From a virus (taxonomy: Duplodnaviria; Heunggongvirae; Uroviricota; Caudoviricetes), in the IMG/VR virus record IMGVR_UViG_2690315922_000020: 5,028 nucleotides of DNA; one strand, 5' to 3'. Shown piece by piece: positions 1 through 3,991 of this stretch; the first letter of the stretch is position 1; the number at the start of each line of letters is the position of its first letter. The position numbers and the translations under genes were made by a program. Under the pieces are notes generated by a model that was given only the letters and a program-made list of their open reading frames with translations, had not been told where the DNA came from and did not search any database.

Positions 1-573
1 GTGAGCTTCCTATCTACTCAGCAAATACATGATCAATGTCTAGCAACAACACAAAAAGCTATTGAATCACTTGGATGGACTAATATCTCTGTAGGCGTTT
101 TGAGCGATGAAGAGAGACGCCAGCTTGAAGATGCAAGTTTACAAAGCCACTTGGACTGGCGATGGGCGATGCAGACCTATCGCGGTGACGCTGTAGATGG
201 AATACTGGATATAACGTTAAAGCTGATCGACCGTGATGAGCCCGAACAGCTTCATGCGGTTATCATTTGTAAATACGACTGGCGCCGTGAGCAATTCTCA
301 ATTTGCATGTTAGAAAACTTCATTTCAGATGAGGATACCGACCTAACAGGCAATGTGTTGATCATCGCACTTATTTACGCGACTACCTTCTGCCAGATCG
401 CGGAGCTTGACGACGTTTATATTCAAGATCCTACTGAAGATGCACAACCGCGTTACAGGAGCTACGGATTTGCCCAAGTATGGCATGACCACAGTAAGAT
501 GTCTGCAGATGTGCACGACATCCTCGACACCATACGACGGAAAGTGAATGGCATTGACCCAGTTGAAGAATGA
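1..573 (+). CDS. Hypothetical acidic protein, about 190 aa; 5' end may be truncated by the window edge
   Basis: Uninterrupted ORF from base 1 (GTG at the window edge, so the true start may lie upstream) to TGA at 571-573. Rich in Asp/Glu clusters (DEERRQLED, DRDEPEQ, SDEDTDLT, DPTEDAQ). No family recognised; a weak GNAT-motif-B-like 'RYRSYGF' is seen but the canonical R/Q-x-x-G-x-G/A loop is absent. Antisense ORFs 343..582 and 431..652 are treated as shadows. Confidence 0.5.
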   Translation: MSFLSTQQIHDQCLATTQKAIESLGWTNISVGVLSDEERRQLEDASLQSHLDWRWAMQTYRGDAVDGILDITLKLIDRDEPEQLHAVIICKYDWRREQFSICMLENFISDEDTDLTGNVLIIALIYATTFCQIAELDDVYIQDPTEDAQPRYRSYGFAQVWHDHSKMSADVHDILDTIRRKVNGIDPVEE

Positions 574-601
574 CAATCTCAATCAGCAGTCGATGGGCTG
601 T

Positions 602-630
602 TTGTTTAATGAACGCATTTGTTATAAAAT
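602..630 (+). promoter_or_regulatory. Candidate sigma70-type promoter upstream of the 57-aa ORF
   Basis: TTGTTT (602-607, 3/6 match to TTGACA), 17-nt spacer, TAAAAT (625-630, 5/6 match to TATAAT); lies about 30 nt upstream of the AAGAGG RBS. Pattern match only. Confidence 0.25.
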
Positions 631-663
631 TATCCGTAAAGTCTATAGCCAAAGAGGTTAACC

Positions 664-837
664 ATGATCAAACAACATAAAAAAATCACTTCTGATAAAG
701 CTATGGCTAGTGCAAGACGCTCTCTCGACTTCTGGGCTTCCATCGACGGCAACAAACTTGCCAAAGTTGGTCAGAAGGAAAAAGACATGGATATGGTCGG
801 GCCGAAGAAAGGTGTAAAGCCAGTAAGCCTCGGATAA
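664..837 (+). CDS. Small lysine-rich basic protein, 57 aa, unknown function
   Basis: ATG at 664 preceded by a strong Shine-Dalgarno AAGAGG (651-656) at 7-nt spacing; TAA at 835-837; followed 25 nt later by a hairpin terminator. Translation: MIKQHKKITSDKAMASARRSLDFWASIDGNKLAKVGQKEKDMDMVGPKKGVKPVSLG (13 K/R out of 57). Below the length cutoff of the supplied ORF track. Confidence 0.45.
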   Translation: MIKQHKKITSDKAMASARRSLDFWASIDGNKLAKVGQKEKDMDMVGPKKGVKPVSLG

Positions 838-889: not shown

Positions 890-1042
890 TCATAACGGTT
901 TCCCGTTACCAAATTCGCTCTTCTCTTTGCTGAGCTGCTGTTTAGCATATGTGACCTTTCCCCAGGACGTAGGAGTCGTTAGCTGATCTGCTCCCCTTAA
1001 ACGAATGCAGCATAATATTAGAAAATTCCGCTCTTGGCACAT
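890..1042 (-). CDS. Speculative 50-aa minus-strand ORF ending at the shared terminator
   Basis: ATG at 1042-1040 with a weak AGGA 5 nt upstream; TGA at 892-890, immediately followed on the minus strand by the 862-882 hairpin plus T6 tail. Translation: MCQERNFLILCCIRLRGADQLTTPTSWGKVTYAKQQLSKEKSEFGNGKPL. No family recognised; could equally be a non-coding transcript 3' end. Confidence 0.2.
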   Translation of the reverse strand: MCQERNFLILCCIRLRGADQLTTPTSWGKVTYAKQQLSKEKSEFGNGKPL

Positions 1043-1286
1043 AGCAGTCCTAGAGACAGTGTCGTAAAGTTATGGAGGATCGGTGGGAGGAGGTAAAAAT
1101 CCTCTCATACAAAAATACGTAAAATCGATAACGGCTGATTTTCATTCAAACTCGTGCTATCGAATAGCACAAAGCCTTGCAATCCAGTGCAAAGCTTTGT
1201 GTGTATGAGTTTTTTCTCACATCACCAGGCAATCATCAAACTCCGTATTCCTGGCGTCATTAATTATGTAAGTGATCACCACGAAT

Positions 1287-1314
1287 ATAGCCAGTGCAGA
1301 ATAGCCAGTGCAGA
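1287..1314. repeat. Perfect 14-bp tandem duplication (ATAGCCAGTGCAGA x2)
   Basis: Read directly: 1287-1300 and 1301-1314 are identical. The unit is not a multiple of 3. It lies at the edge of a coding-like segment (1276-1491) that has mutually overlapping ORFs on both strands and no RBS. Confidence 0.9.
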
Positions 1315-1546
1315 ACTGTAACCATCATCATCTTCTGGCAGCGCTTCCCTTCTCCCGTTATCCAGATTAACCGGGTGGTGCTGAGGATGAGTCCGATATC
1401 GCTTGATCCTGAATTCCACATCTATAGCAAAGCGGAAGGATGTCTCAATGTCGTGGACACACAGTGTTACAGCCACAAATCTATAGCCTAAGAAAGGTTT
1501 ATTTTGTAATTAAAGAAGATTTTAAAAACCAGATTACTCATTCATA

Positions 1547-1617: not shown

Positions 1618-2700
1618 ATGCTTCGCCACTTAACAGGACTCAGATTTATAGCTGCATTAATGGTTTATTTATGCCATTTAAATACAGACTATTTTGGTGT
1701 TTTTGTAAAAGAAATGTTTTCCCAGGGATTTATTGGCGTTTCCTTTTTCTTTATTTTATCTGGCTTCATTCTTTCATATTCATATGAAGACAAGCTAAAA
1801 AATGAAGTAACAAGTAAAAGACAGTTTATTCTTTTAAGATTGGCAAGAATTGTTCCAATGCATCTATTATTAGCCATGCCATTTATTTTACTAACCATTC
1901 ACTTAAAGAACTTTGATTTTTCAAAAACCTTAACAAATATTTTATTAATGCAAAGTTGGATACCAAAGGAGGATTACTACTTCTCATTAAATGGTGTATC
2001 ATGGTCTTTGTCTGATGAGCTGTTTTTTTATTTAATGTTTATTCCGTTGATTTATACATCAATTACAAAGAAAGTAATCACTGCAATATCAATTATAACT
2101 CTACTATTAACTATATATTTTTTAAAAATTATACAAACAGAAGAACTTAATCACTGGTTATATTATATATTCCCAGTAAGCCGCTTGGTAGAATTTATTT
2201 GCGGCATGATTATTTACGCTTGCTGGAAAAACAGCCGACAGCCGACAGCCGACAGCCGACAGCCGACAGCCGACAGCCGACAGCCGACAGCCGACAGCCG
2301 ACAGCCGACAGCCGACAGCCTTTTGTTTTTAATTTCACTATTACCTCTGCTAATAGCTATATATTATAGCAACAACATAAATAATAGTCTACGTTATTCG
2401 TTATATTATTTACTCCCCATGGTAATATTCTTTACTTCATGCATCTATCTAAGAAATGGAGTCATTCATACTATCCTCAGTTCAAAAACCCTAGAGCTAT
2501 TAGGGAAATCATCATTTATTTTTTATTTAATTCATCAACCCATTATATTATTTTGCTTTAAAATCTTTGGACATAACCCCGGACCACTCTATTTAATAGC
2601 GCTCCTTGTTATAATAACCATAGTCTCAATCATACTTTATAAATTAGTTGAGGAGCCTTTAGAGCTGATGCTAAGAAAACGAATTTTAGCAGTAAAATAA
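1618..2700 (+). CDS. Integral-membrane acyltransferase, family 3 (Oac/OafA-like O-antigen/LPS O-acetyltransferase type), 360 aa
   Basis: ATG at 1618 with AAGAGG (1606-1611) at 6-nt spacing; the track's upstream start at 1588 is a TTG with no RBS. Polytopic hydrophobic protein with family hallmarks: N-terminal R-x10-H in the first helix (LRFIAALMVYLCH), FFFILSGF, RLARIVP, and a C-terminal SSFIFYLIHQP motif. Very AT-rich, unlike the flanking tail genes. Contains the in-frame heptanucleotide tract listed separately. Stop TAA at 2698-2700, followed by a hairpin terminator. Confidence 0.85.
   Translation: MLRHLTGLRFIAALMVYLCHLNTDYFGVFVKEMFSQGFIGVSFFFILSGFILSYSYEDKLKNEVTSKRQFILLRLARIVPMHLLLAMPFILLTIHLKNFDFSKTLTNILLMQSWIPKEDYYFSLNGVSWSLSDELFFYLMFIPLIYTSITKKVITAISIITLLLTIYFLKIIQTEELNHWLYYIFPVSRLVEFICGMIIYACWKNSRQPTADSRQPTADSRQPTADSRQPTADSLLFLISLLPLLIAIYYSNNINNSLRYSLYYLLPMVIFFTSCIYLRNGVIHTILSSKTLELLGKSSFIFYLIHQPIILFCFKIFGHNPGPLYLIALLVIITIVSIILYKLVEEPLELMLRKRILAVK
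2231..2320 (+). repeat. Heptanucleotide simple-sequence repeat (ACAGCCG) x 12 plus a 6-nt partial unit, inside the acyltransferase CDS
   Basis: Read directly: 90 bp of perfect 7-nt periodicity with no degenerate units. GC-rich tract inside an AT-rich gene, flanked by A5 (2227-2231) and T4 (2321-2324). Encodes N-(SRQPTAD)4-S between two hydrophobic segments. Confidence 0.95.
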
Positions 2701-2725: not shown

Positions 2726-2891
2726 TATCTTCAGGCTTGATGAATTTTTTACCGTCATATGACCAGCCAATACCAACATCTCCAACACATTTAACTATAT
2801 CCGCTTTTTCTGGCTTAAACTCTGACTTACCATCCCATACAACAAGATTTGTAACGACACCATTTTGTACGACTGCATAAATATCGCTCAT
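2712..2891 (-). CDS. Small protein (59 aa from ATG 2891; 64 aa if GTG 2906) translationally coupled to the tail fibre; candidate fibre chaperone/accessory protein
   Basis: The ATG at 2891-2889 overlaps the tail-fibre TAA (2893-2891) as TAATG. A GGGAG lies about 9 nt upstream. The track's start at 2906 is a GTG inside the fibre's last codons. Stop TAG at 2714-2712. Translation: [59 protein letters not shown]. Much shorter than canonical Tfa/U/G-type assembly proteins (about 170-200 aa). Confidence 0.5.
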   Translation of the reverse strand: MSDIYAVVQNGVVTNLVVWDGKSEFKPEKADIVKCVGDVGIGWSYDGKKFIKPEDKTAQ

Positions 2892-3991
2892 TACTGATAC
2901 TCCCACACAAGAATATATCCCTGATTTCCATTATTTCCTGTCGCTGGGCCTGATGACGCCTTATTGTATTTACCTGTCCCGCCAATACCGTATGTCCCAA
3001 GCATAGTAGTGGTTATACTTTCAACGCCAATCGCCTGATCATCACCAAGTCCAAGTGCCCCACATAAATTTGATCGTGAAACTGAATGGAACAGAATCCC
3101 TTGCCCTGTAGGAATTGGTGCTTCTGTTGCACTTCCCCCTGAAAATGGAGGTACCTGCTGAACTTGAGTTGATCCCCTTCCTCCCGGGCATACAAGCAAA
3201 TCACCAAAGCTTGTATTCCCGCCGTCACCTCCAGAGCCTCCTGGTCCTGTTCCTGCTACACCACCGCTTCCAATAGTTACTTGCACGGATTCAGGTATAG
3301 ACTGATAAAAAAATGCTTTAGCATATGCCCCGTTGGAACCGGCAGCACTTACACCACAGTTATTTGAGGCTGTTGCTGATAAATTGCCACTGGCACCACC
3401 ACCGCCAACGGCTTCCACTATAATTTTCGTTACACCAGGTGATTTGTGATAAGTCCCAGATGATCCAAATACCTGAACCCCCAAAAGCCTTCCTGTTCCA
3501 TCACCAAGTGTTAAATATTGTAGATTTTCCGATACGTTTTTTTTACTTAAAATTTCCCTACCATTTTGAGTCAGCGCTGTCATATCCATTGTTCCAGCAC
3601 CTGTAAAAAATGCCAGCCCATCCGGTATTCCTGTTAAGCTCGACAATGATGTCAGATTATCATTTTTATCCTGTTTATCATTCAGAATGTCTGTCATTCC
3701 CAGGTTTTCGAGAGCCGTTTGCACAGTGCCATCCGATTTGATATCGCCAAACGGATTCTTGCGGCTTAACAGCAGCGCACGAAGCGCGGTAAGAAGCTGA
3801 TCGTGCCGCCCCTTCTCCAGGCTGGCACCGGATGCCTCCACCACGCTGCAGAGTTCTTCCTGCAACATGTCAAAGTAGTCATCATCCAGATCGGTGGCAG
3901 GCGTGCCGGTCTGGGGGTTACCACGGGTAAAACCGTTCTTACCCGCGCCGAACTTATCCTTCTGCGCGGTTTTCGTGTCTATACGATGCAT
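2891..3991 (-). CDS. Phage tail fibre protein, 366 aa, with a conserved N-terminal attachment region and a glycine-rich C-terminal putative receptor-binding domain
   Basis: ATG at 3991-3989 with GGAG about 8 nt upstream, 3 nt after the stop of the DUF2313 gene. The N-terminal about 80 aa ([47 protein letters not shown]...) resembles the conserved N-terminus of prophage tail fibres as I recall it. The C-terminal half is rich in G/S/T/N ([44 protein letters not shown]). Its position after the baseplate-J and DUF2313 genes matches the Mu/e14-type order. Confidence 0.85.

Follow-up and report, generated by a model that had tools for sequence, protein, structure and literature searches.

The 5,028-nucleotide stretch of virus DNA analyzed here (IMG/VR record IMGVR_UViG_2690315922_000020, Caudoviricetes; hereafter the window) begins with two genes on the plus strand, the larger of which (positions 1-573) encodes a 190-aa acidic protein and the smaller (positions 664-837) a 57-aa basic protein. 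A large acidic protein followed downstream by a small basic one is a conserved architecture, and comparison of the loci in which it occurs supports the view that the two genes form a functionally linked, self-contained cassette. The large protein is predicted by structural modeling to have a GNAT (acyl-CoA N-acyltransferase-like) fold. No description of the family was found in the literature, searched by accession number and by topic; the family is previously undescribed and can be classed as a two-gene module that joins a GNAT to a partner of a new kind. A toxin-antitoxin (TA)-like or defence-type function is possible, and is proposed tentatively. At ~0.85 kb for both genes, the pair is a compact candidate for further study. 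The chromosome of porcine Escherichia coli KSC1031 matches the window at 99.9-100% identity and supplied the flanking sequence (L001).

Conservation of the Two-Gene Architecture

Both open reading frames (ORFs) are genuine genes. An initial annotation, made from the sequence alone, had reported their coordinates, their shared strand, and a gap of 90 bp between them, all of which agree with the sequence and the ORF list (intergenic spacer, 574-663). The contrast in charge that it described also holds. The large protein has an isoelectric point (pI) of 4.46, with 35 Asp and Glu residues against 16 Lys and Arg and a net charge of about -19, while the small protein has a pI of 10.08 and a net charge of about +6.6.

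Among the loci of clade A, the clade of the window pair, an intact small ORF lies downstream of the large gene in 23/23 cases drawn from genomes and viral contigs, at a distance of about 56-95 nt. Codon positions 1, 2, and 3 show mean pairwise differences of 0.28, 0.26, and 0.52 for the small gene and 0.32, 0.23, and 0.60 for the large gene, and this excess of third-position differences in both ORFs is a coding signature. The small ORF is thus conserved in relatives with a coding pattern of substitution, and co-occurrence of the pair in other genomes extends from clade A to a plasmid clade and, as a positional analogue, to the clade of phage mEp460. Two loci, L014 and L129, carry a large gene that is disrupted (by a frameshift and by IS903 truncation, respectively) next to an intact small gene; the reverse was never seen.

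The plasmid clade is represented by a Klebsiella plasmid variant in which the large protein is 35% identical and bears an acidic C-terminal extension, and the small protein is clearly homologous and contains ...VNFWLSLDGSKVAKLGNKE... In the form found on Klebsiella and Raoultella plasmids (L128:4980-6011, and L129), this extension is long and the large protein reaches 261 aa. A more distant clade (clade B) includes gp23 of phage mEp460, which is 28% identical to the large protein (hhalign probability 99.8%, E-value 1e-29). In the mEp460 clade, a basic ORF of 53-63 aa (gp24 in mEp460) comes after the large gene at ~20 distinct loci; phage Eeyore likewise has a basic small ORF, unannotated there, downstream of its large gene. 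The clade-B small proteins have the size, the charge, and the helix-turn-helix-like pattern of those in clade A, with a basic tail after an invariant E...G. The pair stays linked over three clades, with large proteins down to ~20-25% identity, and the opposite charges of the two proteins are maintained in clade A and clade B pairs.

Fold and Conserved Residues of the Large Protein

The initial annotation had raised the possibility that the large ORF continues upstream of the window, and this proved not to be so. The full genome record (L001) shows an in-frame TGA 7 nt ahead of the GTG start codon, so the ORF is complete at 1-573. An AAGGA Shine-Dalgarno sequence precedes this start codon by 9 nt, and the equivalent codon, either GTG or ATG, is also the start in homologues from 20 other genomes (GTG in 12/21 loci).

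The large protein has 68 homologues, all from Enterobacterales, nearly all of 187-192 aa, and every one named "hypothetical"; the UniRef cluster of the mEp460 homologue carries the name "N-acetyltransferase". Neither the large nor the small protein matched a Pfam family at E-values up to 1. No NCBIfam family was matched at E-values up to 10, a profile search with the large protein found no match among PDB sequences at E-values up to 10, and no PADLOC-DB v2 model was matched at E-values up to 10 by the window pair or the mEp460 pair. The only sequence-library match of the large protein was phrog_4350, a family of unknown function (E-value 3.4e-14), and this match is full-length (residues 5-180 against profile positions 3-175 of 178). 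When 1.84 billion representative proteins were scanned exhaustively by profile, only 28 relatives were recovered, and no annotated family was linked to them.

In the AlphaFold2 model of the large protein (predicted local distance difference test score, pLDDT, 88.9; predicted template modeling score, pTM, 0.87), the topology is beta1-alpha1-alpha2-beta2-beta3-beta4-alpha3-beta5-alpha4-beta6, which is the GNAT order of elements around a mixed beta-sheet. When the model was compared with the PDB by Foldseek, the GNAT toxins AtaT, TacT3, and KacT were at the top and GmvT ranked 11, with E-values of about 1e-6 to 1e-5 and TM scores of 0.5-0.6. SpeG, RimI, and Naa50 fall within tenfold of these E-values, and since such non-toxin GNATs score so closely, no GNAT subfamily is singled out. 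A search of viral folds in BFVD returned generic GNATs only. The large ORF is not an ordinary phage structural or replication protein. The earlier statement that neither protein could be placed in a known family thus stands at the level of sequence, where no annotated library family was matched, but not at the level of fold, where the large protein is predicted to be a GNAT.

Residue conservation was followed across clades down to ~20% identity. Four residues of the large protein (L51, W53, Y152, and F157) are invariant over all three clades, and conservation reaches at least 90% for three more (E105, L115, and G156). Y152 precedes a G-F pair by four residues, and E105 lies at the end of strand beta4. 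GNATs usually place their catalytic Tyr four residues before G-F, and the end of beta4 is a common location for the general base. From their position, E105 and Y152 are candidate catalytic-type residues.

The Small Protein and Signals for Its Expression

The ribosome-binding site that had been noted ahead of the small gene is present: a Shine-Dalgarno sequence, AAGAGG, can be read at 652-657 on the plus strand, 6 nt before the ATG. In homologous spacers, the matching place is taken by GGAGG or GAGG. The small protein has 31 homologues of 44-65 aa. Its AlphaFold2 model is of moderate confidence (pLDDT 69) and places helices at residues 11-26 and 29-43, so that the protein is predicted to be a two-helix hairpin with disordered, Lys-rich N- and C-terminal tails. 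The invariant core consists of L21, F23, W24, D28, G29, K31, L32, A33, V35, E39, K40, M42, D43, G46, P47, and K49.

The spacer between the two genes holds a putative sigma-70 promoter for the small gene at 602-630 on the plus strand, with a -35 element TTGTTT (602-607), a 17-nt spacer, and a -10 element TAAAAT (625-630). A TTGnnn-17-TAnnnT motif occurs at a fixed spacer position in 26/28 loci, most commonly in the form TTGTTA-17-TAGAAT, and several clade-B spacers carry TGGTAGAAT. The window copy matches the consensus at 8/12 positions, which is under the threshold of a consensus scan, and the suggestion that the small gene has a dedicated promoter comes from the conservation of the motif.

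Upstream of the large gene, a leader of ~190 nt is conserved in E. coli, Klebsiella, Buttiauxella, and Proteus. The leader is considered non-coding because insertions and deletions break every frame. More distant loci feature TTAACA-17-TATGAT ~35 nt before the start codon of the large gene. An upstream small ORF or RNA was considered and rejected, as the frames of the leader are broken and neither leader nor spacer has an Rfam match.

The initial annotation had the pair end at a hairpin terminator, and of this claim the hairpin itself is real. It spans 859-885, with a ~12-bp stem (inverted repeat I3), an A-run upstream, and a T-run on the minus strand; its fold energy is -18.9 kcal/mol on the plus strand (z-score -5.1) and -23.3 kcal/mol on the minus strand. 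The plus strand after the hairpin reads CAUAUCAU. Since the T-run lies on the minus strand, the hairpin is at best a weak or bidirectional terminator for the pair, and its sequence is that of a predicted canonical terminator for minus-strand, convergent transcription. A consensus terminator scan listed it on neither strand. The hairpin is conserved in Klebsiella and Buttiauxella, but not in Proteus.

Location and Mobility of the Cassette

The window comes from an SfV-like E. coli prophage that has a Mu-type baseplate and covers its tail-fibre end; the prophage genes in it include Baseplate_J, Mu gp48 (YmfQ family), the tail fibre, and an O-antigen-type acyltransferase (Acyl_transf_3). The junction at the attachment site (att) is a 57-nt copy of the 3′ part of thrW (tRNA-Thr) plus downstream bases (L001:11573-11629). 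Because this junction lies 372 nt before window position 1, the pair is the gene pair nearest att. The junction adjoins a yagP-like LysR pseudogene and paoABCD, at a site that is held by CP4-6 in K-12.

A 1251-bp block (window -205 to 1045) is 96.9% identical to a Klebsiella chromosomal locus (L032), where its flanking genes encode a glutamine amidotransferase and a member of the AraC family and phage genes are absent from the vicinity. The inserted segment is bracketed by the two copies of a 49-nt imperfect direct repeat (D1; 78% identity, spacing 1466 nt), the first at L001:11705-11753 (window -295 to -247) and the second at 1171-1219 on the plus strand. Sister prophages that lack the cassette and are integrated elsewhere share sequence with the window from 1157-1166 onward, and this suggests insertion or recombination at the D1 repeat. 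Given the identity to Klebsiella, the sister prophages without it, and the bracketing repeats, the cassette appears to be a recent insertion. The locus thereby documents a recent 1.25-kb transfer between a Klebsiella chromosome and an E. coli prophage, and the transferred cassette now resides in the att-proximal moron region, next to the O-antigen-type acyltransferase gene.

Each copy of D1 contains a palindrome, and the segment of ~1.4 kb between the copies holds the cassette. The distal part of the transferred segment (890-1045, minus strand) features a 50-aa ORF at 890-1042 (...TSWGKVTYAKQQLSKEKSEFGNGKPL) that ends just before the hairpin at 859-885, whose T-run serves the minus strand. This ORF is partly conserved in Klebsiella and Buttiauxella and may be the remnant of a third gene.

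Outside the E. coli prophage, the pair is found in varied surroundings. It lies between pspF and a major facilitator superfamily transporter gene in Kluyvera (one site in all three places shown), and adjoins umuC in Pantoea (L027). It also occurs on Enterobacter, Leclercia, and Chimaeribacter plasmids, adjoining an integrase gene in Chimaeribacter and SRAP with umuDC on an Enterobacter kobei plasmid (L127). In phages, the pair is located between int and xis in mEp460, and downstream of Q in Eeyore. A variant of the pair, carried by a conjugative Klebsiella plasmid, lies between a type I restriction-modification (R-M) system and an operon of a cyclic-oligonucleotide-based anti-phage signaling system (CBASS); two related plasmids have the pair upstream of the same CBASS operon, one of them also with type I R-M on the opposite side. 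The plasmid variant is ~1 kb upstream of this type II operon (CapV, CD-NTase, E2, and MPN). In pKLZT-2, the variant is downstream of the type I R-M genes, and on the Raoultella plasmid it is IS903B that truncates the large gene.

Matches to type I R-M were found in 2-3 of 24 other neighborhoods. No third gene recurs among the 141 neighboring ORFs of 24 loci, which match 156 different Pfam families. The exact cassette is rare in complete E. coli genomes (2/5426); the exact large protein is present on 632 contigs, and mEp460-type proteins are on at least 1000 contigs each. Taken together, the sequence contexts support movement of the cassette between prophages, plasmids, and chromosomal islets.

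Comparison With Known Systems

The closest systems by fold are the GNAT/DUF1778 TA pairs AtaT-AtaR, TacT-TacA, KacT-KacA, ItaT-ItaR, and GmvT-GmvA. Their partner is an RHH/DUF1778 protein, whereas the partner in the window is a 57-aa basic protein predicted to form a helical hairpin. The gene order in the window is reversed relative to these pairs, with a 90-nt spacer and a putative internal promoter, and the large protein differs from the toxins in being strongly acidic (pI 4.5), in its degenerate P-loop, and in the absence of sequence-level similarity. No RHH/DUF1778 antitoxin is encoded upstream of the large gene, where the region is non-coding; the partner lies downstream. Known GNAT toxins are monophyletic (PMC7180214), and no evidence places the window family within that group. 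Given its partner, gene order, acidity, and sequence, the pair is not counted as a member of the AtaT/TacT-DUF1778 family.

A second system, TopAI-YjhQ of E. coli, comprises yjhX (topAI; 85 aa, toxin) and yjhQ (181 aa, a putative acetyltransferase that serves as antitoxin) (PMC4666372). Like the window pair, it is a two-gene module that combines a small protein with a putative GNAT-type acetyltransferase of ~180-190 aa (PMC4666372). However, the small toxin gene comes first in TopAI-YjhQ, the opposite of the order in the window, and TopAI has 85 aa against 57 aa. A relationship to YjhQ or TopAI was rejected, since hhalign comparison of the family profiles with the two K-12 proteins gave probabilities of 0.8% and 0.2%, respectively.

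The protein N-terminal acetyltransferases NatD/Naa40, RimI, and Naa20/50, of the GNAT superfamily, are related to the large protein by fold at ~10% identity; in contrast to them, the large protein has no match to Pfam Acetyltransf and lacks the P-loop signature, and they have no counterpart to its dedicated small partner gene or to the layout as a mobile cassette. The large protein belongs to phrog_4350 and is a true homologue of gp23 of mEp460; the gp23-gp24 pair shares the architecture of a large acidic protein followed by a basic ORF of ~57 aa. The large proteins are ~25-28% identical, the small partners are not statistically alignable, and that family is itself uncharacterized.

Proposed Function and Alternatives

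The initial annotation had offered the pair, from its context, as a candidate anti-phage or TA-like module. Recast as a reverse-order TA-like or abortive-infection/defence-type module, this function is possible, though its probability falls somewhat short of an even chance. Several features argue for it, namely the linkage of the two genes, their mobility, the predicted GNAT-toxin-like fold, the putative promoter of the small gene, the asymmetric decay, and one site between R-M and CBASS genes.

Under this proposal, a promoter of its own and a strong ribosome-binding site would yield an excess of the small basic protein, and the large gene is probably translated less, because it often has a GTG start. 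The small protein would bind the acidic GNAT through charge complementarity and restrain it as an inhibitor, a substrate mimic, or a substrate. Should the partner be lost or titrated, for example when the element is lost, under stress, or on phage infection, basic proteins would become targets for acylation by the GNAT enzyme, and growth arrest or exclusion would be the expected outcome. The pair would then work as a reverse-order type II TA system or by abortive infection, from the att-proximal moron of an SfV-like prophage. That the small protein would restrain the large one, and not the reverse, is suggested by the stronger translation signals and separate promoter of the small gene, by the frequent GTG start of the large gene, and by the loss of the large gene from L014 and L129, which kept the small one. 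The full proposal, a new class of module in which an atypical GNAT enzyme, acidic and with a degenerate P-loop but a conserved Glu and Tyr, is controlled by a separately transcribed 57-aa basic hairpin and strikes basic proteins instead of aminoacyl-tRNA to bring about arrest or exclusion, is rather doubtful as a whole.

A number of observations weigh against a TA-like or defence-type function. The neighborhoods are not consistently those of defence islands, as most of the 141 neighboring ORFs are ordinary metabolic or regulatory genes, and PADLOC-DB gave no match. The Klebsiella pair occupies one chromosomal site in 4/4 places, which also fits a benign, housekeeping-like role. The small protein has no RHH/DUF1778 domain, and in these respects (defence-island setting, match to a known defence model, and DUF1778/RHH antitoxin) the initial proposal found no support. 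Homology between the clade-A and clade-B small proteins finds no significant support in profile-profile comparison (hhalign probability 0.3%), and the clade-B small ORFs therefore count as positional analogues only. The asymmetry of decay comprises two cases only. The likeness in fold to GNAT toxins is no better than that to NatD, RimI, and SpeG. Known GNAT toxins target aminoacyl-tRNA, and with a net charge of -19, such a target, or tRNA binding, is unlikely for the large protein.

The P-loop of the large protein is a further point of the same kind. In GNATs, the motif A P-loop R/Q-x-x-G-x-G/A, at the beta4-alpha3 junction, binds the pyrophosphate of coenzyme A (CoA) (PMC7180214). The large protein lacks this signature and has D114-L-T-G117-N-V119 in its place. 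Among family members, the motif begins with no fixed residue and ends in V, I, or M; the central Gly alone is mostly retained, and some clade-B members replace even that. Given this degenerate signature, binding of acyl-CoA by the large protein is only plausible, and the sequence could also be that of a pseudo-enzyme or of a user of another donor.

Four other explanations of the pair were weighed. In the first, the pair consists of an enzyme and its dedicated substrate or cofactor, with no toxicity involved. The GNAT would acylate either a lysine or the N-terminus of its small, Lys-rich partner, and the modified small protein, or the complex, would be a regulator or a lysogenic-conversion factor that benefits the host. 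This explanation is unlikely. A substrate needs no separate promoter, the tail of the Eeyore-type small protein is Arg-only at its C-terminus and thus leaves no universal lysine, and selfish or defence modules show such a patchy, mobile distribution more typically than regulators do.

The second explanation inverts the roles. The small basic protein would be the toxin, acting on nucleic acid or a host enzyme, and the acidic GNAT would be an antitoxin that neutralizes it by sequestration or acetylation. TopAI-YjhQ, with its toxin yjhX (topAI) and antitoxin yjhQ, provides a precedent (PMC4666372), the larger protein lies upstream in keeping with the usual antitoxin-first order, and an acidic protein could neutralize a basic one. 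However, the pair has no sequence relation to YjhQ or TopAI, and the small gene has the stronger translation signals and a putative promoter of its own, which is unexpected for a toxin. Furthermore, the two loci with a disrupted large gene and an intact small one would be lethal or counter-selected if the small protein were toxic. Inverted roles are quite unlikely.

Very unlikely is a third explanation, in which the pair serves in counter-defence or host takeover. Here the small protein would be a helper of the acidic GNAT, which would either acetylate and so inactivate a protein of host defence or of the nucleoid, or else function as an acidic decoy. The moron or early positions of the homologues in mEp460 (between int and xis) and Eeyore (downstream of Q), as well as their presence on plasmids, are consistent with such a role. 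The strong acidity of the large protein is also in keeping with it, DNA-mimic anti-restriction proteins being strongly acidic, and an acetyltransferase anti-CRISPR is known in AcrVA5. Against this, many copies are in chromosomal islets without nearby mobile-element genes (at one site each in Klebsiella, 4/4, and Kluyvera, 3/3), the plasmid variant lies inside a defence island, between R-M and CBASS genes, which is an odd site for an anti-defence gene, and no likeness to known anti-defence folds extends beyond the generic GNAT fold. Finally, although small ORFs are common by chance (the window has 60 ORFs of at least 30 aa), a fortuitous association or a small ORF that is not a gene is effectively refuted by the intact ORF in 23/23 loci with coding-type substitutions, by its conserved Shine-Dalgarno sequence and putative promoter, and by its retention in the plasmid clade next to a large protein of 35% identity and as a positional analogue in the mEp460 clade.

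If the TA-like or abortive-infection reading of the pair is true, it would describe an acetylation-based system that is unrelated to AtaT/TacT-DUF1778 and common in E. coli prophages. As a TA or defence system, it would combine a GNAT-based mechanism with a partner of a new kind, and its target would probably also be new and not a tRNA. Its function would annotate a common "hypothetical" prophage gene pair, the mEp460 type of which is on at least 1000 E. coli contigs and in a well-known lambdoid phage. If the pair is benign, it still defines a new GNAT-fold sequence family that is missed by current profile libraries.

Other Features of the Window

A frameshifted S24/HumD (UmuD-like) remnant lies downstream of the pair (1217-1428, minus strand) and contains a 14-nt tandem duplication (ATAGCCAGTGCAGA x 2.1) at 1287-1315. 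In addition to the umuC and SRAP/umuDC neighbors in Pantoea and on the E. kobei plasmid, the pair in mEp460 (L002) is two genes from dinI. In four contexts the pair has umuC, umuD, SRAP, DinI, or a HumD remnant close by. This raised the idea of SOS regulation, which was rejected, as no conserved LexA box (CTG-N10-CAG) was found upstream in 36 loci. The association of the pair with umuDC, SRAP, and dinI may be coincidental.

The tail fibre is encoded by one continuous ORF of 366 aa (2891-3991, minus strand) with a C-terminal glycine-rich domain (PF21722). In the RefSeq annotation of KSC1031, this ORF is covered by a partial stfP pseudogene only, and the rest is unannotated.

The gene of the O-antigen-type acyltransferase (Acyl_transf_3; 1618-2700, plus strand) contains a perfect, in-frame array of (ACAGCCG) x 12.9 at 2231-2320. 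At this spot, KSC1031 and LHM10-1 have three imperfect units only (ACAGCCG ACAGCAG ACAGTCG), and the window thus carries a 63-nt expansion. Since slippage by 7 nt would shift the reading frame, the array is a candidate phase-variation switch for this conversion gene.

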